From: Oscillospiraceae bacterium
GTDB lineage: Bacteria; Bacillota; Clostridia; Oscillospirales; CAG-272
DNA length: 61,851 nt
Assembly (NCBI GenBank): GCA_015064005.1
Contig: SVTA01000001.1
Location: 1 to 61,851, forward strand
Direction: 5' to 3'
The translations under genes and the position numbers were made by a program. Positions 2,547 to 36,092 of this stretch are shown here, piece after piece (position 1 is the stretch's first letter; each line of letters starts with the position of its first letter). The notes below the pieces were generated by a model that was given only the letters and a program-made list of their open reading frames with translations, had not been told where the DNA came from and ran no database searches.

Positions 2547-2724
2547 AGCAGGGCGTTGAAATTGAAGCTTATGAGGGGGGGAGGCCTTTGTAAAAGGCCT
2601 CCCCCCCCTCTCGCCCAAAAATCTTAAAAAAGAGTGCGTATTCATTGTGAATAGCCGCCTGTGTTCCCGTCTCCCCCTTTTGAAAGGTTTTGGGAGTAGA
2701 GGACGTGAATTTCTTTGCCCGTAA

Positions 2725-2778
2725 AGAGAAGAAGGAGCCCTCTTTTGCAAAAGGGGGCTCCTTCTTCTCTTGTTTTTC
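2725..2778. terminator. hairpin terminator between the bPH_2 gene and the convergent ABC operon
   Basis: AGAGAAGAAGGAGCCC-tcttttgcaaaag-GGGCTCCTTCTTCTCT followed by TGTTTTT. Confidence 0.6.
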
Positions 2779-2789
2779 TCCTCAACCGA

Positions 2790-3692
2790 TCATTTCTGAG
2801 CGCGCTTGGCGCCGCGCACATTGAGAAGCACGTAAAGAGCGATCAGCAGCAGCGTTGCGCCGATCAATACCGCGTACTTTACACCGGTGGGAACAGCCGC
2901 ATCAAAGAAATAAATATTGCAATCCACCGCATCCCGGATCACATCCACCACGGGGGCGGGAATGCCCTCCTCCGAGAGCGCCTCAAACACGCCGCGCATG
3001 GCGTGAGCACGGAGCAGCGAGGTGCCGTAGGTGCCGGGCAGCAACGCAATGGCGTTCTGCAGCCACGGGGAAAACTGAGAAATGGGCATATACGCGCCGC
3101 TGATGAAGCCATAACCGGAGCTGACGATGGTACCCACCGCCGAGATCTGACCCTGCGAATGAAGAAAGTAATTGATCACGGAGGAAAGCGCGGTGCCGAA
3201 GGTGAGCAGCAGCAACACGTCAAGGCACAGAAGCAGCACGTCCACAACGGACAGATACCAGCCCACCACCGCCATATATACCAGACAAATGGCAGCCGCC
3301 GCAAAGCTGACGATGGCAGTTACGAGCAGCGTGGAGAAATAATAGCCGAAGGCCAGATACCGCGCCCGCACCGGGGAAACGGCAAAATCCGCAATGGTGC
3401 CGTTTGCTTTGTCCTGCACCATCAGCATATTGGAGCAAAAGGCCACCGTCACCGTGGAAACGGCCAGAATGGAGGAAATGAGCTGGGCGCCCACGTAGCC
3501 GTTCACCAGTTTTTCGGGTACGGCCACTCCCTCGGCAAAGGAGGAGAGGAACGCATCCCGATAGACGTTGCCGAGAAAGGTCACGTACAGCACAAGCAAT
3601 ATAGCCGGGGTGATCAGCGAAACGAAAAACAGTCCCTTATCCTTGAAAAACAGCTTGGTATTGCGCACGATCAGCGCTTTCAATTCCTTCAT
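2790..3692 (-). CDS. ABC-2 type transporter permease
   Basis: 300 aa with six predicted TM segments. ATGA overlap with the upstream ATPase gene. Confidence 0.85.
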   Translation of the reverse strand: MKELKALIVRNTKLFFKDKGLFFVSLITPAILLVLYVTFLGNVYRDAFLSSFAEGVAVPEKLVNGYVGAQLISSILAVSTVTVAFCSNMLMVQDKANGTIADFAVSPVRARYLAFGYYFSTLLVTAIVSFAAAAICLVYMAVVGWYLSVVDVLLLCLDVLLLLTFGTALSSVINYFLHSQGQISAVGTIVSSGYGFISGAYMPISQFSPWLQNAIALLPGTYGTSLLRAHAMRGVFEALSEEGIPAPVVDVIRDAVDCNIYFFDAAVPTGVKYAVLIGATLLLIALYVLLNVRGAKRAQK

Positions 3693-12870: not shown

Positions 12871-14127
12871 TTATTCAACGCCCATGGCTGCGCTTTCTCC
12901 GGCCAATACCGCCGTAGAGAAGGCGATCTGCAGGTTGAAGCCGCCGGTGTAAGCATCCAGATCCAGTACCTCACCGGCAAAATACAGACCGTGAACCTTT
13001 TTGGAGGCCATGGTGCGCGGAGAGACCTCCTTCAGCGCCACGCCGCCCTTGGTGATGATGGCCTCCTCAATGGGACGGAAGCCCTTGATCCTGATGGGCA
13101 GCGCCTTCAGCAGCTGCAGCAGGCGGTGACGCTCCTCCTTGGTGACGGCGTTCACCTTTTTGCGGCCATCAATGCCGGATAGCCGCACCAGCGGCTCGAT
13201 CAGCTTTTGCGGCAGCAGGTCAGAAAGCGCGTTTTGAAAATCCTTGTTCTTGTATTTTTCAAAATCGGAAAGCAGCCGCGCATCCAGCGTTTTTTCGTCC
13301 AGCGCGGGCTTTAAATCTATTAAAATCTCGTACCGTTCCGGGGTCAAATCCACAAGATGGGCAGAAGCGGACAGCACCAGCGGACCTGTCAGACCAAAAT
13401 GAGTAAAGAGCATTTCGCCCTGCTCCTCAAACACGGTCTTGCCTCTTTGGAGATCTCGCGCCGAAAGCTTTACGTTTCGCAGCGACAATCCCTGTACCGA
13501 GGCCGAGAAGCTTCCCGCCTCTACCAAAGGTACAAGGGAGGGGGTAGGCGGAACCACCGTATGCCCCACCGCCTCGGCAAAGGCGTAGCCGTCGCCGGTG
13601 GAACCGGTGAGGGGATAGGATTTTCCACCGGTTGCCACGATAACGGTATGGAAAAACGCCTCTTTTCCATGGCAGACGACGCCCCGAACGACGCCCTCCT
13701 CAAGAAGCAGGCGCTCTACTCTGCCGGTGACGGTCGTCACACCAAGGCGACGGCATTCCCGCACCAGCGCATCCACCACGTCGGTGGCCTTGTCGGACAC
13801 CGGGAACACCCGATTGCCCCGCTCCACCTTCAGCGGCACGCCCAGCTCCTCGAAAAACGCCTCGGCATCCGCGGAGGAAAAGCGATCCCACGCGGAAAAA
13901 AGGAAGCGGGCGTTGGCGGGGATATTGGCGAAAAACTCATCCCGTGTGCAATGGTTGGTAACGTTGCAGCGCCCCTTTCCGGTGATGCGGAGCTTTCTGC
14001 CGCAACGCTCGTTGCGTTCAAAAATGGTAACGGCGGCGCCCATCCTTGCCGCGTGGATCGCGGCAACCAGCCCTGCCGCACCGCCGCCGATGACGGCAAC
14101 GGTGGTTGTCATATGTTCGTTCATCAT
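12871..14127 (-). CDS. NAD(P)/FAD-dependent oxidoreductase (HI0933/BaiN-like flavoprotein)
   Basis: VAVIGGGAAGL dinucleotide fold, C-terminal GLYFAGEVLDLDAYTGGFNLQIAFST signature. Confidence 0.85.
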   Translation of the reverse strand: MMNEHMTTTVAVIGGGAAGLVAAIHAARMGAAVTIFERNERCGRKLRITGKGRCNVTNHCTRDEFFANIPANARFLFSAWDRFSSADAEAFFEELGVPLKVERGNRVFPVSDKATDVVDALVRECRRLGVTTVTGRVERLLLEEGVVRGVVCHGKEAFFHTVIVATGGKSYPLTGSTGDGYAFAEAVGHTVVPPTPSLVPLVEAGSFSASVQGLSLRNVKLSARDLQRGKTVFEEQGEMLFTHFGLTGPLVLSASAHLVDLTPERYEILIDLKPALDEKTLDARLLSDFEKYKNKDFQNALSDLLPQKLIEPLVRLSGIDGRKKVNAVTKEERHRLLQLLKALPIRIKGFRPIEEAIITKGGVALKEVSPRTMASKKVHGLYFAGEVLDLDAYTGGFNLQIAFSTAVLAGESAAMGVE

Positions 14128-14984
14128 CCGTTTTTATCGTATACGTCATATTCGTCCCAAATGCTTTCCAGCCGCCGCAGGCGCTCTGCCACCTCGCTGT
14201 GCCGACGCATGGAAACGGCGGCCACCATGGCGTTGATGATGCTGAGCGGTGCCACCAGCGAGTCCACAAAGGAGGCCATATCGCTGCGGGCAGTGAGCAG
14301 CTGATCGCTGAAGGGGGCAAGCGGCGAAGCGGCGCTGTCGGAGATCGACACCACTCCCGCTCCCGCCCGATGGGCAAACTCTACAGCGCGCACGGTGCGC
14401 TTGCTGTAACGGGGAAAGCTGATAGCGATCAGCACGTCCTCGGGTCCGACGTTGAGGATCTGCTCAAAGATCTCGGTGCCGGAGGTGCCCTCCACCGCCC
14501 GCACGTTATCAAAGATCATGCGCAGGTTGAAGGTGAGGAAGTCCGCCAGCGCCGCCGAGGAGCGGATGCCGAGGATGTAAATGTTTTTGGCGGAAACGAT
14601 GCGCTCCACCGCATCATAAAAGGCGGGACGATCAATGCCGTCCAGGGTCTGGCGGATCTTGTCCGCGTCGCCCAGCAGCACCTTGTCAAGGATGTTGTCC
14701 TTATCAAGCAGGCTGTCAGCGACCTCCACACGCTGGGCGGCGGTCAGCTGAGTTCTGGCCATCTCCTGCAGGGCGCGCTGCATCTCAGGATAGCCGCTGA
14801 AGCCCAGCTCGTCCGCAAAGCGAACCACCGTGGACTCCGAAACCTTTACCACGGCGCCCAGCTTTGCCGCGGTCATATAGGCAGCGCGATCGTAATGATC
14901 CACGATATATTGCGCGATGAGGCGCTGGCCCTTGGAAAACTCCGGCATGCGCGTCATCATCGTTTGTAATAGATTCTGTTTCAT
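14124..14984 (-). CDS. MurR/RpiR family transcriptional regulator (HTH + SIS domain)
   Basis: ATG 14984. An N-terminal HTH_6-like segment (SKGQRLIAQYIVDHY...) is followed by a SIS domain. Confidence 0.85.
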   Translation of the reverse strand: MKQNLLQTMMTRMPEFSKGQRLIAQYIVDHYDRAAYMTAAKLGAVVKVSESTVVRFADELGFSGYPEMQRALQEMARTQLTAAQRVEVADSLLDKDNILDKVLLGDADKIRQTLDGIDRPAFYDAVERIVSAKNIYILGIRSSAALADFLTFNLRMIFDNVRAVEGTSGTEIFEQILNVGPEDVLIAISFPRYSKRTVRAVEFAHRAGAGVVSISDSAASPLAPFSDQLLTARSDMASFVDSLVAPLSIINAMVAAVSMRRHSEVAERLRRLESIWDEYDVYDKNG

Positions 14985-15098
14985 GTTTCTACACTCCACG
15001 CAAAAAATGGGGTTTCTAAATGTTTATTATACATCTAATTTATATAATTGTCAAGGGCTTCTCGGCATGCCGTTTTTGATATTTTTTGCCGTCGAGGG

Positions 15099-15156: not shown

Positions 15157-16449
15157 ATGGAAGTCAATTACAAGAATAAAAAAAGCTATCGCACGGCCAA
15201 ATATCCGCTGCGGCAGCCGTGGTACCTCACGTGGCTGATCTGGATCCTATCAAGGATCATGCTGACAGGCAAGCAAAAAAAGATCGAAAAGATCGGCATG
15301 GAGGGTCTGAAGCCCCCATACCTCCTTTTCAGCAATCACATGTCCTTCATTGATTTTGAGCTGGTAGCGCTGGCCACTCACCCGCACAAGGTCAACAACG
15401 TGGTGAATATTGACGGCTACTATCGCCGTCCGTGGCTGCTGACATGGATCGGCGCCATCTGCACCCGTAAATTCACCACCGATATGCACCTGGTGAAGTC
15501 CATCAAGCGGGTCATTGAGCGGGGCGACATCCTTTGCATGTACCCGGAGGCACGCTACTCTCCCTGCGGCACCACCTCCTTTATGCCTGAAACGCTGGGC
15601 ATGCTGGTGCGTCGCTGCGGGGTGCCGGTGGTGATCGCCGTGCATCACGGTAATTACCTCCACGCCCCCTTCTGGTGCTTCCGCAAAAAGCGCCGCGTAC
15701 CGCTCCACACCACCTTTACCAAGATCCTCACTGCAGAGGAGGCAAGCACCCTTCCTGTAGAGGAGATCAACCGCCGTATCCGCGAGGCGATGCAGTACGA
15801 CGAGTACCGCTATCAGCGAGAAACCGACATCCGCATCACCGAGCCGTTCCGTGCCGAGGGACTACACAAGATCCTATATCAATGCCCTGCCTGCGGCACC
15901 GAGCATCAAATGGCCTCAGAGGGCACGGCGCTCTTCTGCACCGCCTGCGGCAAGCGCTGGATCCTCGGGGAGGACGGTGTGCTTTCCGCCACCGAGGGCG
16001 TGACCGAATTTCCCCACGTACCGGATTGGTTTGAGTGGGAGCGGGGGCAGGTACGTGCCCAGATCGAGAACGGAACATACGCGTTTTCCGACACCGTTGA
16101 CGTACATTCTCTGCCAAGATGCTGGAAATTTGAAGCGCTCGGCACCGCCACACTCACTCACGATGCCCAAAACGGCTTCGTGCTGGAGGGGCACTATCGC
16201 GGCAAGGATTACCGCATCCAGCGCCTGCCCCTGGAAACCAACAGCCTCCACGTGGAATATGATTTTCCCCACGTGAAGCCTTTTGACTGCCTGGATCTCT
16301 CTACGCCAAACGATTCCTTCTATTGCTTCCCCACAAAGCAAAATGTGGTCACAAAGCTCTCCCTTGCCACAGAGGAGATTTACAAAATACACGAGGAAAA
16401 GCGCCTGGCCGCACGCGCCGCGCGAAGCGCCGCCAAAGACGCCGTATAA
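15157..16449 (+). CDS. lysophospholipid acyltransferase-family protein with internal CxxC...CxxC zinc ribbon
   Basis: AAGGAG RBS. SNHMSFIDFE (HX4D), YPEARYS, and CPACGTEH...CTACGKRW. Confidence 0.75.
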   Translation: MEVNYKNKKSYRTAKYPLRQPWYLTWLIWILSRIMLTGKQKKIEKIGMEGLKPPYLLFSNHMSFIDFELVALATHPHKVNNVVNIDGYYRRPWLLTWIGAICTRKFTTDMHLVKSIKRVIERGDILCMYPEARYSPCGTTSFMPETLGMLVRRCGVPVVIAVHHGNYLHAPFWCFRKKRRVPLHTTFTKILTAEEASTLPVEEINRRIREAMQYDEYRYQRETDIRITEPFRAEGLHKILYQCPACGTEHQMASEGTALFCTACGKRWILGEDGVLSATEGVTEFPHVPDWFEWERGQVRAQIENGTYAFSDTVDVHSLPRCWKFEALGTATLTHDAQNGFVLEGHYRGKDYRIQRLPLETNSLHVEYDFPHVKPFDCLDLSTPNDSFYCFPTKQNVVTKLSLATEEIYKIHEEKRLAARAARSAAKDAV

Positions 16450-16512
16450 AAAAGCCGCCCTACGCGGTGCTTGCGGTAGAGCAGTATGAAATTGAAAATA
16501 CCTACCGACAGG

Positions 16513-16551
16513 AAAAGGACGAGAAATTGCTGAAATTTCTCGTCCTTTTTT
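16513..16551 (+). terminator. rho-independent terminator
   Basis: AAAAGGACGAGAAATT-gctg-AAATTTCTCGTCCTTTTTT. Confidence 0.85.
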
Positions 16552-16597
16552 CTTGACAAGCACTGCTTCTGTGTCCACAGAAGCTATTTCGATTTTG

Positions 16598-16807
16598 TCG
16601 ATATGCCGTCGCTTTGCTCGGCTCGATATATTTGCCTTGCAGCAAATTCGATATGTTTTCGCTATGCTCAAACTCGATATGATATAAATCCGCGCTCACG
16701 CAGTGAGCATATCGAGTGCGACAGCACATATCAAACGCGTTAGCGTATATCGAAAATCCGCATTAGCGGATTTATATCGATGCGTACCTGCTCTATGGCA
16801 GGTACGC
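16598..16807. repeat. array of eight TCGATAT/ATATCGA heptamers (4 forward, 4 reverse) separating short unrelated hairpins
   Basis: Forward copies start at 16598, 16623, 16648 and 16674. Reverse copies start at 16709, 16728 (ATATCAA variant), 16747 and 16774. Each intervening segment is self-complementary, for example GCTCAC-gca-GTGAGC, AAATCCGC-atta-GCGGATTT and GCGTACCTGC-tctatg-GCAGGTACGC. Confidence 0.7.
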
Positions 16808-16879
16808 TACGGGGCGGCTTTTTTATACTTTTTGAAAATCATTTTTTCTAAAAATCAATACAGTTTGCGGCCTAAATGC

Positions 16880-17827
16880 TCAAAATCCACATTCCTGCTG
16901 AAAATCCGTCAAAGCCTGCACATACCCTTCGGGATCAGTGGGATAGGCGAGGCCGTGACCGGCGCCGCGGATGGGCACCAGCTTCTTCTGGGAACGGCAG
17001 GCCTCAAAAACACGAACACTCATCTCGTAGGGAACGAAGGCATCGACGTCGCCGTGAATCAGAATGAGAGGAATGTCGGTTTTCCGCACCGCCTCCAGCG
17101 GAGAGGTCTCCTCCAGATCAAAGCGGCCGAAAAGACGGGCTGCCAAACGTACGAAGGGATAGAACACTTCCGCGGGCAGGTGCATATCCCGCATTACCTT
17201 GCAGATGATCTCCCGGGGGGAGGAATAGCCGCAATCGGCCAGCACGCAGACCACATTGGGTGGCAGCGGCTCGCTCATGGCCATCATCACCGTGGCGGCG
17301 CCCATGGAAACACCGGTGAGGATCAGCTTGACCTCCGGCCCGAAGCGCTGCAGAGCATATTGCACCCACGCAAGGCAATCGCGGCGCTCTCGAATACCGA
17401 AGGTGGTCACGTGGCCATCGCTGCGGCCACCGGCGCGGTGGTCGATGAGAATGGCGCTCCGCCCCAGTGAAAAGCACCGGGCCACGCCGCCGCTGAGATC
17501 TCGCTCCGCATTGCCGCGATAGCCGTGAAACAGCAGCTCTACCGGGGCACCGGGGGCGTATTCGTAGTAGCGACCGCGCAGCGTGAGCCCGTCAAAGGAG
17601 GTGATCTCCACATCCTCTCTCGGCATTTCGCGAATCATTTTCGTCCAGGCAACGATTCCCTCCCGGTAGGGCTCGTAGATCTCCCCATCGGGAATCTCGT
17701 AGGCATCGGGATCTTCAGGGTCGCGACCGGGCACGTAAAACACCTTAAAAAAGCAATACACCGTGATGCCAAGCGGCACAAGCAGCAGCACCAGCGCCAC
17801 GGAAAGCCAAAGCCAGAAATACATCAT
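16880..17827 (-). CDS. alpha/beta hydrolase with N-terminal membrane anchor
   Basis: GVSMGA nucleophile elbow, downstream D and H residues, N-terminal TM helix. Confidence 0.85.
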   Translation of the reverse strand: MMYFWLWLSVALVLLLVPLGITVYCFFKVFYVPGRDPEDPDAYEIPDGEIYEPYREGIVAWTKMIREMPREDVEITSFDGLTLRGRYYEYAPGAPVELLFHGYRGNAERDLSGGVARCFSLGRSAILIDHRAGGRSDGHVTTFGIRERRDCLAWVQYALQRFGPEVKLILTGVSMGAATVMMAMSEPLPPNVVCVLADCGYSSPREIICKVMRDMHLPAEVFYPFVRLAARLFGRFDLEETSPLEAVRKTDIPLILIHGDVDAFVPYEMSVRVFEACRSQKKLVPIRGAGHGLAYPTDPEGYVQALTDFQQECGF

Positions 17828-18237
17828 TCCTCCATCAGCTTCTTCAGGAATGCGTTTTCATCACGGGAGATGGTCTCGTCGCAGGCCGCCACGCAGGCGA
17901 TCAGCATGATCAGCGGCGCGCGCTGCTCGATGGGCAGATAATCCACCAGATGATTGACGAACTCCGCCGCCTCTTTACTGTAGCCCGCCACGATGCTCTT
18001 CACCGATTGCATAGGAATATCCAGCAGCTCGCTGACAAAGCACTTTTCCAGGTCAGTCAGATCGCCGTCTGCCCCCAGGGCGGCGGATAAAACGTAATAA
18101 TATACCTTTGCATGCTCGTTGGGATACAGACGACGGATCTCGGGCATCGTCATCCGCAGTGCCTCCTTCGCCATTTCAAGAAGCGTCTCGTAATCCTCGT
18201 TCACCAATTGTTGCATCGTTTCTTCCCAGCTTGCCAT
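17824..18237 (-). CDS. hypothetical protein, possibly TerB-like
   Basis: ATG 18237 follows GGAAGGAGG. ATGA coupling to the hydrolase gene. The helical DGDLTDLEK / ACDETISRDENAFLKKL pattern is reminiscent of TerB; this is weak evidence. Confidence 0.55.
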   Translation of the reverse strand: MASWEETMQQLVNEDYETLLEMAKEALRMTMPEIRRLYPNEHAKVYYYVLSAALGADGDLTDLEKCFVSELLDIPMQSVKSIVAGYSKEAAEFVNHLVDYLPIEQRAPLIMLIACVAACDETISRDENAFLKKLMEE

Positions 18238-18420
18238 AAAAAGCCTCCTTCCGTCGCGCCGCCCGCACCGGGGCACTTGTAATTGCGTTATATTTTAGCA
18301 CAGCCCTGCCGCCTTGTCAACGGTTTTTGGGACTCGCGGCAAAAAAATTCGTTTTTTTATCAGGCAAAATGCCAATTCCGGCCATGAAAGGTACAAAATC
18401 GTGTTTTTTTTAAAAACCGC

Positions 18421-18449
18421 TTGACATTTTGAAGGGGAGGCTCTAAAAT
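18421..18449 (+). promoter_or_regulatory. promoter of the creatininase-paralog operon
   Basis: TTGACA-N17-TAAAAT, 45 nt upstream of ATG 18494 (RBS AAGGAGG). Confidence 0.6.
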
Positions 18450-18493
18450 GGGGATGACTACGCGCGTGTGCACTTTATCTTAAGGAGGATTTT

Positions 18494-19369
18494 ATGGAAA
18501 CACGATGGCTCTATCACACAAGTGAGACTTTTCCCACGTTAGTGGAGGAATCCAAGGGTGTTTGCGTCATACCCATGGGATGCGTGGAAAAGCACGGCCT
18601 GCACCTGCCGCTGGGTACCGATTGCTTTGAGGCGACCGAAACCACTTACCTCGCTTCGCAGATCGAAACGGCTTGCGTTTTTCCCGACTTTATCTTCGGT
18701 GACGTGCCCGAGGCCTATCCCTCCATGCCCGCCGGCACCATTACCCTGCCCGTGGATACCGAAATGCTTCTGCTGGAGCAGCTCTGCGAGCAGATCTCCC
18801 GTAACGGTATGAAAAAGATCCTCGTCGTGAACGGTCACGGCGGCAACAACAAGTGGCTTTCCACCTTCCTCAGAAAGATGTATAACAAAAAGCACGACTT
18901 CGTCTGCGCCGTTTATAACTGCAGCTCCTCCAAATCGGTCAACCGCGTGGCAGAGTACTTGCTCGAAAACGGCACGGGCTCCGTGCCGGAGCTGACGCCC
19001 GAGGACGAAAAGGTGGTGCTGGACTTTCACGCCGCCGGCAAGCTGACCGGCCACGCCTGCATGGGCGAGACCGCCTGTGTGATGGGCTGCCATCCCGAAA
19101 CGGTACATCTTGAGCGCCTGGGCATCGAAAGCGGCCTGCCCACCCACGTGGCGGATTATCTGAAGGAAGCGGGCATTGAGATCAAGGATCACGGCTGGGG
19201 GCTCAATTTCCCCAACGCCTTCACCGGTCACGATCCCGTGGGCTGCAACGAGCGCATCGGCAAGGCCGCCCTTCGCATGCAAGCGGAAAAGCTTGCCCAC
19301 GCGTTCAAGGTCTTCAAGGAGGACGAAAACGTCCTTAAATGGCACCAAGAAATGCAAAAAGGTTGGTAA
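18494..19369 (+). CDS. creatininase-family amidohydrolase, paralog 1
   Basis: EKHGLHLPLGTD, NGHGGN and GHACMGET motifs form the metal/catalytic signature of the creatininase/MftE/ArfB fold; 291 aa. Confidence 0.85.
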   Translation: METRWLYHTSETFPTLVEESKGVCVIPMGCVEKHGLHLPLGTDCFEATETTYLASQIETACVFPDFIFGDVPEAYPSMPAGTITLPVDTEMLLLEQLCEQISRNGMKKILVVNGHGGNNKWLSTFLRKMYNKKHDFVCAVYNCSSSKSVNRVAEYLLENGTGSVPELTPEDEKVVLDFHAAGKLTGHACMGETACVMGCHPETVHLERLGIESGLPTHVADYLKEAGIEIKDHGWGLNFPNAFTGHDPVGCNERIGKAALRMQAEKLAHAFKVFKEDENVLKWHQEMQKGW

Positions 19370-19490
19370 CGGTATGGAAACAAGATGGCTGTATCACACA
19401 AGTGAGACCTTTCCCAAATTGGTAGAAGAAGCAAAGGGCGTGTGCGTCATCCCCATGGGTTGCTCTGAAAAGCACGGCCTGCACCTCCCC
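19304..19490 (+). repeat. junction repeat copy 1 (3' end of paralog 1 + TAACGGT + 5' end of paralog 2)
   Basis: TTCAAGGTCTTCAAGGAGGACGAAAACGTCCT.AAATGGCA.CAAGAAATGCA.AA.GG.TGGTAACGGTATGGAAACAAGATGGCT... recurs at about 90% identity at all three junctions. Confidence 0.8.
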
Positions 19491-20264
19491 CTCGGTACCG
19501 ACTGCTTTGAGGCGGAGGGCACGGTTCTGGAGGCTGCAAAGCTGGAAACGGTGTGCATTTTCCCCACCTTTGTCTTTGGCGATTATCCCATCGCCTCCCC
19601 CATCAAGCCGGAGGGCTCGGTGCCGCCCGGCACCATCACCCTGCCCGTAGAAACCGAAATGCTCCTCCTCGAGCAGCTCTGCGAGCAGATCTCCCGCAAC
19701 GGTATGAAAAAAATACTCATTGCCAACGCCCACGGCGGCAACAGCCCGTGGCTTTCCACCTTCCTGCGGAAGATGTACAACAAAAAGCACGACTTCGTCT
19801 GCGCGGTGTACGGCTGTCGCTCCAGTCAATCCACCAAGCGGCTGTGTGAGCATCTGCAGGAGCACGGGCGCGGCTCGGTTCCCTATCTCACCACCGCCGA
19901 CGAGGACTATCTGCTGGAGTTCCACGCCACCCCAAAGGTGACCGGCCACGCCTGCATCGGCGAGAGTGCCGTGACCATGGGCGTCTATCCCGAAACGGTG
20001 CACCTTGACCGTCTCGGCATCGAAAGCGGTCTGCCCACCCACGTGGCGGATTACCTGAAGGACGCGGGCATCCAGATCGCCGACTACGGCTGGACCCAGC
20101 AATACCCCAACAACTACAGCGGTCACGATCCCCTGGGGCTGACCGAAACCATCGGAAAAGCCGCGCTCTGGATCCAGGCGCGCTATATGGCACAGGCCTT
20201 CAAGGTCTTCAAGGAGGACGAAAACGTCCTCAAATGGCATCAAGAAATGCAAAAAGGCTGGTAA
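19374..20264 (+). CDS. creatininase-family amidohydrolase, paralog 2
   Basis: ATG 19374 lies 4 nt after the paralog 1 stop. SEKHGLHLPLGTD, NAHGGN, GHACIGES. Confidence 0.85.
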   Translation: METRWLYHTSETFPKLVEEAKGVCVIPMGCSEKHGLHLPLGTDCFEAEGTVLEAAKLETVCIFPTFVFGDYPIASPIKPEGSVPPGTITLPVETEMLLLEQLCEQISRNGMKKILIANAHGGNSPWLSTFLRKMYNKKHDFVCAVYGCRSSQSTKRLCEHLQEHGRGSVPYLTTADEDYLLEFHATPKVTGHACIGESAVTMGVYPETVHLDRLGIESGLPTHVADYLKDAGIQIADYGWTQQYPNNYSGHDPLGLTETIGKAALWIQARYMAQAFKVFKEDENVLKWHQEMQKGW

Positions 20265-20385
20265 CGGTATGGAAACAAGATGGCTTTATCATACAAGCGA
20301 GACCTTCCCCACGCTGGTGGAGGAATCGAAGGGCGTTTGCGTCATCCCCATGGGATGCGTGGAAAAGCACGGTCTGCATCTGCCC
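20199..20385 (+). repeat. junction repeat copy 2
   Basis: Same ~187-bp block spanning the paralog 2/3 junction. Confidence 0.8.
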
Positions 20386-21141
20386 CTGGGGCAGGATATC
20401 ATCCAGGCCACTCACATCACATATATGGCATCACAGCTGGAAACGGTATGCGTTTTCCCGGATTTCACCTTCGGTGATTACTGCAACGCCGCCCCCGGTC
20501 AGCCCGCAGGCACCATCACTCTGCCTGTGGAGACCGAAATGCTGCTCCTCGAGCAGCTCTGCGAGCAGATCTCTCGCAACGGTATGAAAAAGATCCTCAT
20601 TCTCAACGCCCACGGCGGCAACAAGACCTGGCTTTCCACCTTCCTGCGGAAGATGTATAACACGAAGCACGATTTCGTGATGGGCGTCATTTTCGTAGAT
20701 CTGCCCGCGCCCCACGGTATGGCGGAAACGTTGCTCCAAAAGGGCAGCGGCGCGATCCCCGAGCTGACCGTCGAGGATGAGGCCATTCTCCTCCGTCATC
20801 ACGAGGAAAATATGAAGCTGGGTCACGCCTGCTTTGGCGAGACCGCCTTTATGATGGGCATTGCCCCCCAGGCCGTGCATCTTGACCGTCTCGGCATCGA
20901 GAGCGGGCTTTCTACACACAAAGCCGACTACTTGAAGAAGGCCGGCTTGGAGATCATGGCGGGCGGCTGGGATATCAACTACCCCAACAACTACGACGGC
21001 GACGACCCCGTGGATTGCAACGAGCGCATTGGCAAGGCCGCGCTTCGAATCGAGGCCGAGCGCGTCGCCCACGCCTTCAAGGTTTTCAAGGAGGATGAAA
21101 ACGTCCTCAAATGGCATCAAGAAATGCAGAAAGGGTGGTAA
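20269..21141 (+). CDS. creatininase-family amidohydrolase, paralog 3
   Basis: 4-nt gap from paralog 2. EKHGLHLPLGQD, NAHGGN, GHACFGET. Confidence 0.85.
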   Translation: METRWLYHTSETFPTLVEESKGVCVIPMGCVEKHGLHLPLGQDIIQATHITYMASQLETVCVFPDFTFGDYCNAAPGQPAGTITLPVETEMLLLEQLCEQISRNGMKKILILNAHGGNKTWLSTFLRKMYNTKHDFVMGVIFVDLPAPHGMAETLLQKGSGAIPELTVEDEAILLRHHEENMKLGHACFGETAFMMGIAPQAVHLDRLGIESGLSTHKADYLKKAGLEIMAGGWDINYPNNYDGDDPVDCNERIGKAALRIEAERVAHAFKVFKEDENVLKWHQEMQKGW

Positions 21142-21262
21142 CGGTATGGAAACAAGATGGCTTTATCATACAAGCGAGACCTTTCCCTCCCTTGTAGAAG
21201 AAGCGAAGGGCGTGTGCGTCATCCCCATGGGATGCGTGGAAAAGCATGGTCTGCATCTGCCT
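21076..21262 (+). repeat. junction repeat copy 3
   Basis: Same ~187-bp block spanning the paralog 3/4 junction. The 3' half recurs again at 21955-22021. Confidence 0.8.
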
Positions 21263-22021
21263 CTTGGCGCCGATATCATGGAGGCAAGCGCCATCGTCTA
21301 TGAGGCCTCCAAATTAGAGACGGCTTGCGTTTTTCCCGATTTCACCTTTGGTGATTACTGCAACGCCGCCCCCGGTCAGCCCGCAGGCACCATCACGCTG
21401 CCCTTAGAAACCGAAACACTGCTACTTGAGCAGCTTTGCGAGCAGATCTCTCGCAACGGCTGCAAAAAAATTCTGATTTGCAACGCTCACGGTGGCAATA
21501 AAGTCTGGCTCTCTACATTTCTCCGCAAGCTTGCCAACAAGAAGCGGGATTTCGTCTGCGCCGTCTGCACGCTCCCCTTCAGCTCCACTCACAAGATTTT
21601 GGCGGAGCAGCTACTGGAAAAGGGAAGTGGCGCGGTTCCCGAATTATCCGCAGAGGATGAAGCTTATCTGTTGGATTTTTACAATCAGGGCAAAACAGCG
21701 GGACATGCCTGCATCAGCGAAACCGCCCTTATCATGGCCATTGCCCCCGAAGCCGTTCATCTTGATCGACTCGGCATCGAGAGCGGACTTTCCGCTCACA
21801 AGACCGATTATCTGAATGATGTCGGCATCCAAATTGTCAACGGTGGCTGGGACATCAATTATCCCAACAGCTACGAGGGGCACGATCCCGTGGATTGCAA
21901 CGAGCGCATCGGCCGCGCAGCGCTTCGTGTGGCGGCGGAAAAGCTGGCAAGAGCGATCAAAGTCTATAAGGAGGACGAAAACGTCCTCAAATGGCATCAA
22001 GAAATGCAGAAGGGGTGGTAA
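21146..22021 (+). CDS. creatininase-family amidohydrolase, paralog 4
   Basis: ATG 21146 lies 4 nt after the paralog 3 stop. EKHGLHLPLGAD, NAHGGN, GHACISET. Confidence 0.85.
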   Translation: METRWLYHTSETFPSLVEEAKGVCVIPMGCVEKHGLHLPLGADIMEASAIVYEASKLETACVFPDFTFGDYCNAAPGQPAGTITLPLETETLLLEQLCEQISRNGCKKILICNAHGGNKVWLSTFLRKLANKKRDFVCAVCTLPFSSTHKILAEQLLEKGSGAVPELSAEDEAYLLDFYNQGKTAGHACISETALIMAIAPEAVHLDRLGIESGLSAHKTDYLNDVGIQIVNGGWDINYPNSYEGHDPVDCNERIGRAALRVAAEKLARAIKVYKEDENVLKWHQEMQKGW

Positions 22022-22022
22022 C

Positions 22023-23231
22023 ATGTATAAAACGCTTGACGCGCTGATGCAGGCGGCAGGCTGCACCGTCTATCCCGCCCGTTGGAACGAGATTTTCGAC
22101 ACCGTTATGGGGGATTTTGACAAAAACGGCTGTTTTTTGACCGATCCTGCCTATTACGATGAGATCCACGAGAAATACGGTGTCTTGAACAAGCACCTTG
22201 ACCTTTATAAGGAGGCGGCCGCGGCCGTCGGCAAACGAGAGCCGCTTGCCCGCCTGCTGGCACTGCTGGCGGCAACCATTCGGGATCGCCAGCACGTAAA
22301 GGCGGATCTGAAGGAATTTAAGGCACCAAAATCCCCGGAGGGTACCCATGATCTCGCCATTGATATGCTGACGGCACTGCCCCTGTTTGCGGCACTGCCC
22401 TACACGGCCAAAAAGATCGCCCCCCGCAATCTGCCGAAATACATTTCCGATTATATCCTTCAAAACCCGGAAAAGTGCGTGGATTACCATAAAAATCGCT
22501 ACGGCGTACCGGGCTGCAATTTGATCGGCTGGTATCAGTTGGCTATTGAGGGCGAGCTCTTTCGCGTGGGGCGGCTGGAAATTCAGATCTGTGCTCAATT
22601 TAAGGGGGGAACGGTATTTGAAAACGCCAAAGGCGAGCGCGTCACGCTTTGCCACGGCAGGCTCCTTCATCGGGAGGGTTTTCCCCTTGGTTCCTACGGC
22701 TATGAGGACGAGGAGGGCGCTTTTGAGGCCAGCATCACCGAGACCGACGAGGCCTTTGTCGGTTATCCCTACAAGGCAGACGGATACATTGAAACGCATA
22801 CCGTTTGCCTACTAAAATCCGAATGGCGCCCCATTCTCACCGACGGCGACCCTGTGGTTTCCCTGCACATTCCCGCCGGCGGCGGCCTCACCCCCGAGAT
22901 CGTGGACGAGACCCTGGCCGAGGCCAAAAAGGTGCTTGTCACCTATTACCCCGATTTCGAGTACAAGGCCTTCGTGTGCAGTAGCTGGATGATGGATCCG
23001 CAGCTGGTGGAGCTGCTCGGGCCCGATGCCAACATCTCCAAGTTCTGCAGCCGCTTCACCCCCATGGCGCAGAAGAGCGTCGGCAACGGTGTGATGAACT
23101 TCATCTTCTTTGATCCCGACCGAAGAATCCCCCTCTCCGACCTGCCCGAGGACACCCGCTTCCAGCGCGCGCTGAAACAGCATTATCTGAACGGTAAGGT
23201 CATCTATGAAATGTTCGGTTATTTCATTTAA
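22023..23231 (+). CDS. GNAT-like acyltransferase domain protein (uncharacterised two-domain family)
   Basis: ATG 22023 lies 1 nt after the paralog 4 stop; 402 aa. The C-terminal ...PAGGGLTPE...CSSWMMDPQL...GNGVMNFIFF resembles 'acyltransferase domain-containing' proteins of Clostridia. This is from memory and needs an HMM check. Confidence 0.6.
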   Translation: MYKTLDALMQAAGCTVYPARWNEIFDTVMGDFDKNGCFLTDPAYYDEIHEKYGVLNKHLDLYKEAAAAVGKREPLARLLALLAATIRDRQHVKADLKEFKAPKSPEGTHDLAIDMLTALPLFAALPYTAKKIAPRNLPKYISDYILQNPEKCVDYHKNRYGVPGCNLIGWYQLAIEGELFRVGRLEIQICAQFKGGTVFENAKGERVTLCHGRLLHREGFPLGSYGYEDEEGAFEASITETDEAFVGYPYKADGYIETHTVCLLKSEWRPILTDGDPVVSLHIPAGGGLTPEIVDETLAEAKKVLVTYYPDFEYKAFVCSSWMMDPQLVELLGPDANISKFCSRFTPMAQKSVGNGVMNFIFFDPDRRIPLSDLPEDTRFQRALKQHYLNGKVIYEMFGYFI

Positions 23232-23250: not shown

Positions 23251-23277
23251 GCCCGCGCGTCCCGAGGACGCGCGGGC
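23251..23277 (+). terminator. terminator-like GC hairpin ending the creatininase operon
   Basis: GCCCGCGCGTCC-cgag-GACGCGCGGGC; the T tract is poor. Confidence 0.5.
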
Positions 23278-23342: not shown

Positions 23343-23371
23343 TTGACAAAAAAGGAAAAATCTGTTATACT
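23343..23371 (+). promoter_or_regulatory. promoter of the ABC exporter pair
   Basis: TTGACA-N17-TATACT. Confidence 0.6.
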
Positions 23372-23490: not shown

Positions 23491-25245
23491 ATGATCGACA
23501 AGAATCTGCTCCGACTACTGGGTAAAAACAAAAAGTATATCTTTTACACCGTGGCTTTGATGGTGCTGGGGCTCTTTGCCAATCTCACCATCACCGCATC
23601 GCTCTGCTACGCCATTCATCTGGCGCTGCATTACGCAGAGCAAGGCGGCGGCCCCGTGATATTCCTTCCCCCTGCCATCGGCGCTGCCGCCGGCATCCTG
23701 CTGCGCTATATCTCGACCCGTTTGGTAGGTAATTTGCGCGATCTCCTCGGTCGCCGTGCCAAAAAGGATCTGCGCCAGCAGGTTTACGACAAGATCGTGC
23801 GCCTTGGCGTGCGCTCCACCGACGGCATGAGCATGGCCGGTCTCACGCAGGTATCCATGGAGGGCGTGGAGCAGCTGGATCTCTACTATTCCTCCTACAT
23901 CCCCCAGTTCTTTTACGCGATGCTTGCTCCCTTTATTCTGTTCGGCATCACCGTGGGCATCGACTGGCGCGTGGCCGTGGTGCTGCTCTGCTGCGTGCCG
24001 CTGATCCCCGCCTCTATCATTGCGGTTTCCAAATATGCCAAGCGCATTTTTGCGAAATACTGGGGCAAGTACACCTCTATGGGTGACAGCTTCCTTGATA
24101 GCGTACAGGGTCTTAAGGAATTGAAGATCTTTGAGGCCGACGAGGCGCAGCACGGCAAAATGAACGAATCTGCCGAGAATTTCCGCAAGATCACCATGAA
24201 GGTGCTGGTAATGCAGCTGGCAAGCACCACCATCATGGATCTGGTGGCCTACGGCGGCGCCGGCGCGGGCATCGCCTTTGCGGTAATGGGCGTGGCTGAC
24301 GGTCGCCTTTCCCCTGTATCTGCCTTGTTCCTCATTCTGGTCGCAGTGGATTTCTTCCTGCCCTTGCGCGCCTTCGGCTCTGCCTTCCACGTAGCCATGA
24401 ACGGCGCCAGCGCCGGCAAAAAAATCCTTTCCCTTCTCTCCCAGCCCGATCCCGAATGGGGCACTGAGACGGTGGAGGATACAGAGCTGGCGCTCACCGA
24501 CGTCTGTTTCTCTTATGACGGGCGCCGTCAAGTGCTGAAAAACGTTTCGATGACGCTGCCCCGGCGGGGCATGACCGCCATTGTGGGCGAGTCGGGCTGC
24601 GGCAAATCCACCGTGGTCAATATGCTCTTTGGCGCCTTCCGCCAGCAGAGCGGCAGCGTGACCGTGGGCGGCAAGCCCCTCTCCTCCCTCTCGCGAGAGG
24701 CCTACTACGACAAGCTGGCCGTGGTCAGCTATAACACCTACGTATTCAACGCCACCGTGCGGGAAAATTTCCTGCTCGCTGCCGGCACCGTCAGCGACGA
24801 GCAGATCTACGACGCACTGGAGCAGGTGAATCTCGCCGAGTTCATCCGCAGCAGCGGCGGTCTTGACAAGGTGATCACCGAGGATGCCGCCAATATCTCC
24901 GGCGGTCAGAAGCAGCGTTTGGCGCTGGCCGTGGCGCTGGTTTCCGATAAAGCGATCTACGTCTTTGACGAGGCCACCAGTAACATTGATATCGAGAGCG
25001 AGGCCATTATCATGCGCAACGTCAAGGCGCTTTCCGAGAAAAAGGCGGTCATCGTCATTTCTCACCGTCTGGCCAACGTCACCCCCGCAGACCTCATTTA
25101 TTATATGGAGGCAGGTGAGGTGAAGGAGACCGGCACCCACGCCGCGCTGATGGCGGCAGACGGCGGTTACGCCGCACTTTACACCGCGCAAAAGGCACTG
25201 GAGGAGGGCTATCGCTCCGCCGGCACCGTGGAGGTGAACGTATGA
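23491..25245 (+). CDS. ABC exporter fused permease/ATPase, CydD-like half-transporter
   Basis: Six TM segments plus an NBD. GESGCGKST, ISGGQKQRLALAVAL, VFDEATS. Confidence 0.9.
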   Translation: MIDKNLLRLLGKNKKYIFYTVALMVLGLFANLTITASLCYAIHLALHYAEQGGGPVIFLPPAIGAAAGILLRYISTRLVGNLRDLLGRRAKKDLRQQVYDKIVRLGVRSTDGMSMAGLTQVSMEGVEQLDLYYSSYIPQFFYAMLAPFILFGITVGIDWRVAVVLLCCVPLIPASIIAVSKYAKRIFAKYWGKYTSMGDSFLDSVQGLKELKIFEADEAQHGKMNESAENFRKITMKVLVMQLASTTIMDLVAYGGAGAGIAFAVMGVADGRLSPVSALFLILVAVDFFLPLRAFGSAFHVAMNGASAGKKILSLLSQPDPEWGTETVEDTELALTDVCFSYDGRRQVLKNVSMTLPRRGMTAIVGESGCGKSTVVNMLFGAFRQQSGSVTVGGKPLSSLSREAYYDKLAVVSYNTYVFNATVRENFLLAAGTVSDEQIYDALEQVNLAEFIRSSGGLDKVITEDAANISGGQKQRLALAVALVSDKAIYVFDEATSNIDIESEAIIMRNVKALSEKKAVIVISHRLANVTPADLIYYMEAGEVKETGTHAALMAADGGYAALYTAQKALEEGYRSAGTVEVNV

Positions 25246-26930
25246 GTAATCAGAAGAAGCAACTGCGCCGCAGCGGCGCAAAGATCATGGCAAGCCTGGT
25301 GCTGCTGCTGGGCAGCCTTGCCTATATTATGCTGCTGGCCGTGCTGAACGGCTCGCTCGGCTTCCTTTCCGCCATGGGCGTCACGCTCTTTGGCGCCATC
25401 GGCATTGCCAAGGCGCTGGGAGAGAGCATTTCCCTTTCCTACGGCGTCATCATCGCGCTGGCTGTTGGCTGCGGCGTGCTGCGCGGCGTGCTGCGGTATT
25501 TTGAACAGTACAGCAACCACTATATCGCCTTCCGCCTGCTGGCGGTGCTGCGCGACAAGATCTTCGGTGCCCTGCGGCGCCTGTGCCCCGCTAAGCTGGA
25601 AAGCAAGCAAAAGGGCAGCATCATCGCCATGATCACCTCCGATATTGAGACACTGGAGGTCTTTTACGCCCACACCCTCTCCCCCATCTGCATTGCGGTG
25701 GTGGTCTCCCTTGCCGTATTTCTCTTTGTGTGGCTCTTTTCCTCCATCTATCTCGCGCTGGTGGCGCTATGCGGCTACGTGACCGTAGGCGTGCTGGTGC
25801 CCCTCATTTCCTCCCGTCGCCTGAAGGCCTCCGGCGTGCGATACCGCGCCGAGTTCGCTGCCTTCAACGCCTATTTCCTTGACAGCATCAAGGGCATCAA
25901 GGACATTGTGCTTAACAATGCGGGTGAGGCGCGCAAGGAGGAGGTCAACCGCCGCTCTGACGTGCTGCTGATGGAAACCAAAAAGATGAAAAACGACACC
26001 ACCGCGGCAGCAGCCGCCACCGAGCTTGCTGTTTCGCTCTTTATCCTCACCACCCTTGCAGTAGGCGTGCTGCTGATGGCAACGGGGCAGCTCTCCGCTG
26101 GCCGTATGGTGGTGGGTGTGGTAGCCGTGTTCGGCTCCTTTGCTCCCGTCATTGCCATTTCCGCTCTGCCCGGCAATCTGACCCAGACCTTCGCCTCCGG
26201 CGACCGTGTGCTGGATCTGCTGGCAGAAAAGCCCGCCGTTACCCCCGTTGAAAGCGGCGCGGATTTTGATTACGAGCATCTTGACGTAGAGGGCCTCTCT
26301 TTCTCCTACGATGGCGTCACCCCCGTGCTTGAAGACGTTGCCATGCACGCCAAGGCCGGCGAGATCGTGGGTATCGTGGGCGAATCAGGCTGCGGCAAAT
26401 CCACCTTTCTCAAGCTCCTGCTCCGCTTCTGGCAAAAGCAGGAGGGCAGCATTGCCTACAACGGCATCGACGTGGATGCCATTGACGGCGACAGCCTGCT
26501 GCGAAACGTGACCATGGTCAGCCAAGTCACCTACCTCTTTGACGAAACCATTGAGGACAATCTCCGCATCGCCAAGCCTGATGCCACCCGCGAGGAGATC
26601 GAGGCCGCCTGCCGGATGGCCTCGGTGCACGACTTCATCCTCACCCTGCCCGACGGATATGAGACCCGCGTGGGCGCCCTTGGCGACAACCTCTCCGCCG
26701 GAGAGAAGCAGCGCATTGGCCTCGCCCGCGCCTTCCTCAAGGGCAGTCCCCTCATTTTACTCGACGAGCCCACCAGCAACGTGGATAGCATCAACGAGGG
26801 CATCATTCTGCAGGCGCTGCAGGCACAAAAGCAAAAAAAGAGCATCATTCTGGTCTCCCATCGGGAATCTACCATGGCCATTGCCGACCGCATCTACCGC
26901 GTGGAGGCGGGCCGGATGAAGGCACTTTGA
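25242..26930 (+). CDS. ABC exporter fused permease/ATPase, CydC-like half-transporter
   Basis: ATGA overlap with the previous gene. GESGCGKSTF, LSAGEKQRIGLARAF, LLDEPTS. Confidence 0.9.
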   Translation: MSNQKKQLRRSGAKIMASLVLLLGSLAYIMLLAVLNGSLGFLSAMGVTLFGAIGIAKALGESISLSYGVIIALAVGCGVLRGVLRYFEQYSNHYIAFRLLAVLRDKIFGALRRLCPAKLESKQKGSIIAMITSDIETLEVFYAHTLSPICIAVVVSLAVFLFVWLFSSIYLALVALCGYVTVGVLVPLISSRRLKASGVRYRAEFAAFNAYFLDSIKGIKDIVLNNAGEARKEEVNRRSDVLLMETKKMKNDTTAAAAATELAVSLFILTTLAVGVLLMATGQLSAGRMVVGVVAVFGSFAPVIAISALPGNLTQTFASGDRVLDLLAEKPAVTPVESGADFDYEHLDVEGLSFSYDGVTPVLEDVAMHAKAGEIVGIVGESGCGKSTFLKLLLRFWQKQEGSIAYNGIDVDAIDGDSLLRNVTMVSQVTYLFDETIEDNLRIAKPDATREEIEAACRMASVHDFILTLPDGYETRVGALGDNLSAGEKQRIGLARAFLKGSPLILLDEPTSNVDSINEGIILQALQAQKQKKSIILVSHRESTMAIADRIYRVEAGRMKAL

Positions 26931-34923: not shown

Positions 34924-35093
34924 AGTAGTCAAGTATTGGTGCATGCTTGTATTTTGCGTAAAACGCAACGGAAAAGCATCGCCAAAGCCCCATTTATCCA
35001 TTACCGCCAGATCGATGTCGGCAGCGTGCCGCCATTGCATCTGCGGTGGGAAAATAAAATGTGTCCAAAATAATATTTTTAGGAGGAAACACA

Positions 35094-36092
35094 ATGAAAC
35101 GCATTCTTACCCTTGTGCTGGTTCTGATGCTGGTGATGCTGGCTGTTGTAGCCTGCACGAAGCCCGAAGAGCCCCACACCCACAGCGCTACCAAGACCGA
35201 GCAGGTAAATGCAACCTGCACCGCCGCAGGCGTGAAGGCATATTGGTACTGCTCTGGCTGCACAACCTACTTCGCTGACGAGGCCTGCACCAGCAAGATC
35301 GATAGCATCGACGCTTGGAAGGCTGCCGATGGCAAGATCGCTGCACTCGGCCACACCACTCTGGTTGAGAAGTCCGCTGCTGTTGCTGCGACCTGTACCA
35401 CTGCCGGCAAGACCGCTGTGATGGGCTGCGAGAGATGCGACTACACCGAGGGCGGCACCGAGATCGCTGCTAAGGGCCATTCCGCAACCAAGACCAACCA
35501 GGTTGATCCTACCGCTACCACTGATGGCGTAAAGGCTTACTGGTACTGCTCCGCTTGCGAGTGCTACTTCTCTGACGAGGCTTGCACCGCTAAGATCGAG
35601 AACCTCGACGCTTGGAAGACCGGCGACGGCAAGATTCCCGCTACCGGCGCTCCTGAGCTTCCTCCTGTAAATGAGGGTACCCTGAAGGCCGGCGTGTATA
35701 AGGGAACCGCAGCCGTTACCGGCGCGCCCATGTCCTTCAACATGACCCTTACCCTGAAGGCTGACAACACCTTCACACTGACCGATGCTGCAGGCGCTGA
35801 CAAGGGATCCGGTACTTGGGCTCTGACCGGTGACTGCTACACCCTGACCTTCGGTGCCGAGAAGACCACCACCTTCGTGGTAAAGGCTGACGGCTCTCTG
35901 CAGATCACCTCTCGCCTGTACTACGGTGCTATGAGCATTGATATCACTATGGTTGATGGCGGCACGATCGTCTTCTCCTTCGACAGCGATATTCCCACCG
36001 ATCCCGAGCAGCCCGGCGGCGGCGACGATCCCGAGCAGCCCACCGACAAGGACGACATCGTAGAAGACGATTTCGTAGCTCCCATCGTGTGA
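35094..36092 (+). CDS. lipoprotein with three Cys-rich ATCTxxG...CxxC modules and a C-terminal lipocalin-like module
   Basis: AGGAGG RBS; lipobox AVVAC. The repeated module is H-S-A-T-K-T-x-Q-V-x(3)-[CA]-T-x(2)-G-V-K-A-Y-W-Y-C-S-x-C-x(2)-Y-F-[AS]-D-E-A-C-T (nt 35181-35648). The C-terminal part contains LKADNTFT...GTWAL...YTLTF. Confidence 0.8.
   Translation: MKRILTLVLVLMLVMLAVVACTKPEEPHTHSATKTEQVNATCTAAGVKAYWYCSGCTTYFADEACTSKIDSIDAWKAADGKIAALGHTTLVEKSAAVAATCTTAGKTAVMGCERCDYTEGGTEIAAKGHSATKTNQVDPTATTDGVKAYWYCSACECYFSDEACTAKIENLDAWKTGDGKIPATGAPELPPVNEGTLKAGVYKGTAAVTGAPMSFNMTLTLKADNTFTLTDAAGADKGSGTWALTGDCYTLTFGAEKTTTFVVKADGSLQITSRLYYGAMSIDITMVDGGTIVFSFDSDIPTDPEQPGGGDDPEQPTDKDDIVEDDFVAPIV

Follow-up and report, generated by a model that had tools for sequence, protein, structure and literature searches.

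Organisation of the operon

Five genes are packed on the forward strand of contig SVTA01000001.1 from an Oscillospiraceae bacterium (assembly GCA_015064005.1), of which the first 61,851 nt were analysed (hereafter the window). The first four genes (A-D, 18494-22021) encode paralogs that match the creatininase-fold metallo-amidohydrolases, and the fifth (gene E) encodes a putative N-acyltransferase. Paralog A (18494-19369) has 291 aa, paralog B (19374-20264) 296 aa with a 5-residue insertion after residue 76, paralog C (20269-21141) 290 aa, and paralog D (21146-22021) 291 aa; their E-values against Pfam PF02633 were 1.4e-35, 2.5e-33, 1.6e-35, and 2e-38, respectively. Gene E (22023-23231) encodes 402 aa, and the successive gaps between the five genes measure 4, 4, 4, and 1 nt.

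A sigma-70-type promoter (TTGACA-17-TAAAAT, 11 of 12 consensus positions) is located at 18421-18449 and was the sole strong forward-strand promoter match upstream of gene A. The Shine-Dalgarno sequence of A (AAGGAGG, 18482-18488), read directly from the sequence, stands 5 nt before its ATG. The initial annotation of this DNA had described a single operon of four tandem paralogs behind this one promoter, and the promoter, the tandem order, and the gaps were all confirmed. No signal peptide was obvious in any of the five proteins when the sequences were read by eye, and we predict that the genes form one cytoplasmic, translationally coupled operon. Its probable end is a G+C hairpin of 12 bp on the forward strand, 3' of gene E (23251-23277; -29.5 kcal/mol, z = -5.5), with no T-run behind it. 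A second, separate promoter-like site (23343-23371) precedes the genes downstream of E. The operon had been annotated as free of transporters and regulators; this holds for the five genes themselves, and a regulator of the RpiR type lies upstream, outside the operon. A leader RNA or riboswitch was rejected, as an Rfam scan gave no match near the operon and the leader spans only ~40 nt. The single Rfam match in the window was a T-box leader (RF00230, 38151-38394, reverse strand), which scored 94.3 bits, just over the gathering score. A plasmid or mobile origin was also rejected, as a tblastn search of plasmids yielded no match of 30% identity or more.

The three junctions between A, B, C, and D are near-identical (19322-19415, ~20217-20310, and ~21094-21187, all on the forward strand). 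In each of them, the conserved coding end of the C-terminus is followed by TAA, CGGT, and ATG, and the ribosome-binding site of the following gene (AAAGGnTGG) sits within the QKGW codons of the preceding paralog. The junction sequence TAACGGTATGGAAAC is also present in L004, L007, and L013 (L-numbers denote metagenomic contig loci of relatives), and TAA-CGGT-ATGGAAAC is kept at the nucleotide level across genera.

All four paralogs matched the Pfam family Creatininase (PF02633), scoring 116-133 bits (cutoff 31.3; E-values 1e-33 to 1e-38). Residues E32, H34, D43, N113, H115, G116, G117, N118, G186, H187, A188, and E192 are invariant among them. The catalytic motifs that had been reported for every copy (E-x-H...D, N-x-H-G-G-N, and G-H-A-x(3)-E) are thus intact, with no residue lost or misaligned. 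The six metal and catalytic residues (E32, H34, D43, H115, H187, and E192) are also invariant in 37 homologs and align with E34, H36, D45, H120, H178, and E183 of creatininase (metal ligands and catalytic His). For paralog A, an AlphaFold model (predicted local distance difference test, pLDDT, 92.7) was compared with the PDB using Foldseek, and all 26 matches (E-value <= 0.001) were creatininase-family structures. Template modelling (TM) scores against 3lub, 3no4, 1q3k, and 1j2t/3a6x were 0.64-0.78 at identities of 16-24%. The creatininase fold was thus borne out by profile and structure searches, neither of which found a different fold. We conclude that A-D are most readily read as binuclear-metal creatininase-fold amidohydrolases with complete predicted active sites.

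Assignment to characterised members of the family was not supported. True creatininase (EC 3.5.2.10, TIGR04448) was rejected, as the NCBIfam equivalog model gave 56-65 bits against a cutoff of 235; after the His ligand, A-D carry H-G-G-N versus H-Y-E-N in the creatininase of P. putida. Likewise rejected were MftE (TIGR03964; 52-72 bits, cutoff 172), IolN (29-38 bits, cutoff 245), and ArfB (20-28 bits, cutoff 180), and no radical-SAM or precursor-peptide genes adjoin A-D. Among 1.84 billion representatives, a profile search recovered 5,846 family members; only ~25-30 clusters are of the full-length ~290-aa type, which is therefore a narrow subfamily of the creatininase fold. Cysteines C24, C30, and C98 are invariant throughout this subfamily, and C189, in the GHAC motif, is invariant in A-D; all four residues lie outside the classical creatininase motifs.

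Gene E matched GNAT_C (PF18164) with 114.5 bits against a cutoff of 22.8 (E-value 4.8e-33) and, weakly, NAT_N (PF18082) with 23.9 bits, under the cutoff of 27.8. The only significant PDB relatives by sequence were Dbv8 (E-value 1.2e-20) and Orf11*/Tcp24, with E-values of 1e-20 to 5e-16 overall, and Orf11*/Dbv8 were also the only significant fold matches (E-value <= 0.001). In the AlphaFold model of E (pLDDT 94.9), residues 1-175 are helical, and the model aligns over its full length with Orf11* (TMt 0.69-0.75). An H282-I283-P284 motif, unchanged across 28 homologs, lines up with the HIP of Dbv8; we take the His of this motif to be the proposed general base, His196 of Orf11*. A GNAT-like acyltransferase had been annotated at the operon end, and both the PF18164 match and the homology to Dbv8/Orf11* substantiate it. 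We predict that gene E encodes an acyl-CoA-dependent N-acyltransferase of the Dbv8/Orf11* type. To our knowledge, acyltransferases of this type (DUF5596 in genome annotations) are known only from lipoglycopeptide antibiotic pathways. In the biosynthesis of A40926 and teicoplanin, Dbv8 and Orf11* act as acyl-CoA:glucosaminyl N-acyltransferases (PMC8987122).

Divergence of the paralogs and conservation of their termini

The pairwise amino-acid identity of A-D is 68-75%. Divergence had been noted in the central regions, around residues 130-175, and identity indeed reaches its minimum in alignment columns 141-160 (0.37), followed by columns 41-60 and 181-200 (0.52 each). The least conserved stretches are columns 41-60 and 141-200, the latter located between the ligands H115 and H187. 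This interval presumably corresponds to the substrate-contacting loops or pocket of creatininase.

With pairwise dS values of 0.77-1.52 and dN/dS of 0.16-0.26, A-D are long-diverged, old copies that are individually maintained. L013, from a sister species, was the nearest relative found, with flanks of ~85-88% nucleotide identity to the window. Its orthologs of A, B (L013_2), and C (L013_3) share 98, 99, and 94% amino-acid identity, at dN/dS values of 0.047, 0.026, and 0.072 that do not exceed the values for the flanking genes (0.05-0.11); B and C also share 93% identity with L002_1 and 85% with L002_2, respectively. Each of the isoenzymes is under strong purifying selection, and the orthogroups of A, B, and C reach 80-93% identical proteins on other contigs. 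Pairwise identities and trees, both suggested in the initial annotation (the latter for dating the duplications), revealed old copies in orthogroups that span genomes. Neither of the closest relatives, L013 and L001, has D, and blastn showed that C of L013 abuts the acyltransferase directly. Sites that are fixed within orthogroups and differ between them form clusters at 145-150, 190 (in GHAC-x-GE), 242-243, 251-252, and 261-263.

Two tracts resemble gene conversion in a run-length permutation test. The tract between C and D (aa 69-89, p < 0.0005) comprises 22 concordant polymorphic sites over ~62 nt (20473-20535 and 21350-21412) and likely represents gene conversion; the tract between B and C (aa 126-135, p = 0.0005) is shorter. 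Together with the tandem order, the conserved junctions, and the clustering of termini by genome (see below), such tracts would fit an array that amplifies the dosage of one enzyme by redundant tandem duplication, with the copies held similar by gene conversion. We consider this very unlikely. The copies are far apart in both dS and protein identity, distinct orthogroups are kept across species at the low dN/dS values seen against L013 (0.026-0.072 for A-C), and group-specific residues are fixed beside the active-site motif.

The termini follow a different pattern from the cores. As had been described, residues 1-14 (METRWLYHTSETFP) and 275-291 (KEDENVLKWHQEMQKGW) are identical in A-D. However, this likeness is not particular to the array and spans the whole ~290-aa subfamily: the motifs METRWLY.TSE.FP and KEDENLL.WH...QKGW are conserved in ~120 homologs on many contigs, single-copy loci included, and the single-copy loci L020 and L034 retain the same tail motif. 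Terminal identity therefore mostly reflects purifying selection on subfamily motifs. Dual coding, in which the QKGW codons double as the ribosome-binding site of the next gene, likely explains part of the constraint on the C-terminus.

In addition, the tails carry genome-specific variants, namely WHANFQKGW in all four copies of L004, EFQKGM in both copies of L007, and QEMQKGW in all four of A-D. In a full-length neighbour-joining tree, A, B, and C grouped together with 100% bootstrap support, whereas in a tree of the cores only (aa 41-262) this group dissolved and D paired with L004_2 (93% bootstrap). Because the core-only tree breaks the within-genome clustering, the termini of a given genome evolve in concert, and the cores represent old lineages. 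Synonymous-codon identity was 0.62-0.73 at the ends versus 0.41-0.74 in the rest of the gene. As it is barely raised, either the termini were not homogenised recently or their likeness stems from co-evolution. Given this barely raised synonymous identity and the subfamily-wide occurrence of the motifs, we rejected recent duplication and pure gene conversion as the principal explanation for terminal identity. The genome-specific variants point to a component of concerted evolution that remains.

Copy number and gene neighbourhood in relatives

Homologs are abundant in metagenome-assembled genomes (MAGs) of Clostridia and Oscillospiraceae from gut, rumen, and cecum samples, which agrees with the taxon assumed in the initial annotation. 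We counted the adjacent paralogs at loci with a full-length homolog of E. Four are present in the window and L004, three in L013 and L014/L015 (at least three in L001), and two in L002 and L007 (at least two in L016). One adjacent paralog was found in L011/L012, L020, L021, L029, and L099; in L024 and L034 a GDSL gene stands between the single paralog and the acyltransferase; and in L022 one paralog, cut by the contig end, is followed by two acyltransferase genes. No paralog adjoins the acyltransferase in L003, L006, L009/L010, L017, L019, L027, L030, L032, L098, and L100. L002 and L003 represent one shared locus with two and zero paralogs, respectively. Tandem acyltransferase paralogs behind a creatininase-fold gene occur in some relatives: the pair of L022 lies within 525-3292, and the neighbouring locus tags E7590_10180 and E7590_10190 of a Ruminococcaceae MAG likewise point to tandem acyltransferases.

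Amidohydrolase and acyltransferase genes lie on the same strand and nearly abut in the window, L001, L002, L004, L007, L011/L012, L013, L014/L015, L016, L020, L021, L022, L029, and L099. Since the layout of array plus acyltransferase recurs on many independent metagenomic contigs, it is not due to chance. In the survey of orthologous arrays that had been proposed earlier, the number of paralogs before a single acyltransferase ranged from 0 to 4.

These counts bear on the quaternary structure of the enzymes. The characterised creatininase is a homohexamer, and the initial annotation had raised two possibilities for A-D, a hetero-oligomer or a battery of related specificities. In the former case, the four proteins would form one obligate mixed hexamer with the conserved termini as common interface, acting on a single substrate. 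Tight translational coupling would favour equimolar synthesis of such subunits, and the tail variants that are common to all copies of a genome (ANFQKGW in L004, EFQKGM in L007, and QEMQKGW here) could mark co-evolving contacts, given that the mildly raised synonymous identity of the ends makes recent conversion alone insufficient to explain common protein variants. However, relatives combine 1, 2, 3, or 4 copies with the same single acyltransferase, L013 has three copies and no D, and genomes retain differing orthogroup subsets, so that the paralogs do not form a fixed, co-conserved set of subunits. Further arguing against it, every copy has the full catalytic set, and the tail motif is retained at the single-copy loci L020 and L034. 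A copy number of 0 to 4 therefore weakens the case for an obligate, fixed hetero-oligomer, which we consider unlikely, and of the two possibilities the specificity battery is favoured.

Outside the operon, a candidate regulator of the RpiR/MurR family (HTH_6 and SIS in Pfam; MurR/RpiR and HexR-like matches in NCBIfam) is encoded at 14124-14999 on the reverse strand. Relatives show synteny between the RpiR-type gene and the array, and in L004, L007, and L014 the two are directly divergent; three genes separate them in the window and in L013. In the window, these encode a PlsC-like acyltransferase (15157-16449), an alpha/beta hydrolase (16880-17827, reverse strand), and a TerB-like protein (17824-18276, reverse strand). 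This block (15157-18276) is not at that place in L004, L007, and L014, the last of which has a Beta_elim_lyase gene instead, and is an insertion or a lineage-specific addition.

Downstream of the operon, a pair of genes for a CydD-like and a CydC-like ATP-binding cassette exporter follows at 23491-26930 on the forward strand. That the pair belongs to the operon was considered unlikely, as the hairpin and the separate promoter-like site intervene. It is also not conserved, being fused or deleted in L013 and replaced by other genes behind the acyltransferase in L004 and L007. In L013 (14131-15780), a single gene of 549 aa takes its place; it combines a match to the 5' part of the CydD-like gene with one to the 3' part of the CydC-like gene and looks like a deletion fusion. 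Just past the acyltransferase, segments of L013 (12424-13324) and L001 (3738-4638) match window positions 34994-35647 with 74-83% identity in several overlapping registers, which points to a gene or element with internal repeats that is differently placed in relatives.

At several more distant loci, homologs of either gene type have neighbours that fit amino-sugar metabolism and deacylation. In L011 and L099, the gene order is PIG-L (BshB1-like) deacetylase, NagB-like gene, paralog, and acyltransferase, followed by AraC, GFO_IDH_MocA, AP_endonuc_2, GH20 (L011 only), GH38, and GH95. NagA-like and NagC-like ROK genes were found in L100, and a GH27 gene stands beside two paralogs in L096. Further neighbours include GDSL esterases (L021, L024, and L034), a ceramidase-like gene (L034), and a SASA esterase (L007). 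In L027 (3745-10907) and L032, an acyltransferase homolog of 36% identity lies between a major facilitator superfamily transporter gene and genes of the Orn/Lys/Arg decarboxylase and agmatinase families, which hints that some members of the acyltransferase family may act on polyamine-type amines rather than sugars. We did not adopt a polyamine link for the operon, given the low identity of this homolog (36%) and the lack of a paralog beside it.

Possible function and comparison with known systems

As a tentative but favoured reading, we propose that the hydrolases are N-deacylases or ring-openers of differing specificity on amino-sugar-type compounds and that the acyltransferase re-acylates the freed amine. 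Each amidohydrolase would cleave an amide (N-acyl, N-formyl, or lactam) on a different compound of this type and expose a free amine, to which the shared acyltransferase would transfer a new acyl group from acyl-CoA. In this way N-acyl groups would be exchanged or normalised, and varied imported or recycled amino sugars could enter the standard metabolism of N-acetylglucosamine (GlcNAc) type, with the substrate range set by the paralogs (0 to 4) that a genome retains. Differences between the paralogs in the H115-H187 segment and beside the GHAC.GE motif may tune specificity. The conserved termini and junctions would provide translational coupling and may also supply the homology for unequal recombination that alters copy number. 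The setting here would be catabolic or recycling, unlike that of teicoplanin maturation.

Several observations weigh against this reading. The acyltransferase occurs without an adjoining paralog at all the zero-copy loci named above, and paralogs occur without the acyltransferase in L096 (two copies, then GH27) and L097 (one copy). As each gene type is found without the other, the two predicted activities are not obligatorily coupled. The immediate neighbours in the window (PlsC-like, alpha/beta hydrolase, TerB-like, and CydDC-like exporter genes) suggest no pathway, and the link to amino sugars comes from neighbours at other, more distant loci and from homology to enzymes that act on large glycopeptides. 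Moreover, IolN, a C-C hydrolase, and MftE, a peptidase, share the creatininase fold, and cleavage of sugar amides is hence not guaranteed. Finally, that hydrolysis precedes acylation is assumed.

The proposal can be extended to an amino-sugar N-acyl editing pathway of gut Clostridia, although we regard this extended form as rather improbable. Here, each paralog would remove or open a different amide, E would re-acetylate the product, and the resulting sugars would enter N-acetylmuramic acid or GlcNAc metabolism under the RpiR/MurR-type regulator. Candidate targets would be N-acyl groups other than acetyl on glycans of the host or its diet, muramic acid of peptidoglycan and spore cortex in its N-deacetylated or lactam form, and the amide bonds of muropeptides. 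Species would come to differ in substrate range as paralogs are gained and lost via the homogenised termini.

Alternatively, the operon might be biosynthetic and, much like Tei2/Tei11 in teicoplanin maturation, yield an amino sugar that is N-acylated (lipidated), for instance as part of a glycolipid or small secondary metabolite. The closest characterised relatives of E attach acyl chains of the C8-C10 type in antibiotic biosynthesis (PMC8987122), and the PlsC-like acyltransferase (15157-16449) is encoded nearby. However, no glycosyltransferase, nonribosomal peptide synthetase (NRPS), polyketide synthase, or acyl-activating gene is present in or beside the operon, and among the scanned genes (~12.9-30.7 kb of the window) none encodes an NRPS, a cytochrome P450, or a glycosyltransferase. 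Nor does the operon include a dedicated exporter; the CydDC-like pair downstream follows a promoter-like site of its own and is differently arranged in L013. Around homologs, the neighbouring genes are of a catabolic kind (glycoside hydrolases plus NagA-, NagB-, and NagC-like genes). Altogether, a biosynthetic role appears quite unlikely, and we retain deacylation followed by re-acylation of amino-sugar-type compounds as the preferred reading.

Each gene of the operon is a further member of a known family. The searchable literature contained no description of a creatininase-fold array paired with a Dbv8-like acyltransferase in commensal Clostridia. Only a few reactions have been assigned to the creatininase fold, and none of them to its ~290-aa subfamily, which is abundant in gut and rumen Clostridia. 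For acyltransferases of the Dbv8/Orf11* type, commensal anaerobes would be the first setting outside antibiotic production, and their repeated pairing with predicted amide hydrolases points to a hitherto undescribed primary-metabolic step in which amino sugars may be deacylated and reacylated. If true, the operon would provide new enzymes for N-acyl remodelling of sugars and could help to explain how these bacteria exploit modified glycans of host, dietary, or cell-wall origin. The array also combines old cores with concerted termini and a copy number that varies, which makes it an instance of mosaic evolution among paralogs.

With creatininase (EC 3.5.2.10; 1J2T/1Q3K) and its homologs 3LUB and 3NO4 from structural genomics, A-D have in common the fold, the PF02633 match, and the six metal and catalytic residues. 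They differ from creatininase in being ~30 residues longer, in their low identity (16-24%), and in their arrangement as a four-gene array. Tyr121 and Glu122 of creatininase, which we take to contact creatinine, are missing from A-D, where H-G-G-N occupies the site. The same Pfam family includes the mycofactocin peptidase MftE, the archaeal riboflavin formamide hydrolase ArfB, and the 3-dehydro-scyllo-inosose hydrolase IolN. The fold thus covers peptide, formamide, and ring-opening chemistry, and the pathway partner genes of these three enzymes are not present with A-D.

Gene E resembles Dbv8 and Orf11* (Tei11, Tcp24) in its predicted helical N-domain, its GNAT-like C-domain, and the HIP motif. 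It shares only 18-20% identity with them over the fold alignment and is ~60-80 residues longer. Moreover, E originates from anaerobic gut Clostridia without glycopeptide genes, whereas Dbv8 and Orf11* are encoded in antibiotic clusters of actinomycetes. The initial annotation knew of no pathway that uses four such hydrolases together with an N-acyltransferase. This needs to be qualified as far as the reaction logic is concerned, since in teicoplanin maturation a deacylase (Tei2/Dbv21) and then an acyltransferase (Tei11/Dbv8), encoded in one cluster, act in succession (PMC8987122). The deacylase itself differs, with the PIG-L/LmbE fold in Tei2/Dbv21 and the creatininase fold here. A pair of glycopeptide-tailoring type is not apparent: none of the genes scanned (~12.9-30.7 kb) pointed to a glycopeptide cluster, and among the loci compared PIG-L genes were confined to L011 and L099, both distant.

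A further parallel for deacylation followed by acylation is the succession of LpxC and LpxD in lipid A synthesis. For a catabolic setting, a functional precedent is GlmA, which Reith and Mayer (cited in PMC4974736) are said to have described in 2011 as an enzyme of cell-wall recycling that N-acetylates the free amines of amino sugars in the cytoplasm of a Clostridium. By description, GlmA is reportedly a conventional small GNAT rather than a NAT_N/GNAT_C protein, which sets it apart from E, and we know of no creatininase-fold partner described for it. It reportedly belongs to a recycling operon linked to MurR/RpiR and as such would represent a precedent for an N-acyltransferase in a catabolic or recycling locus.

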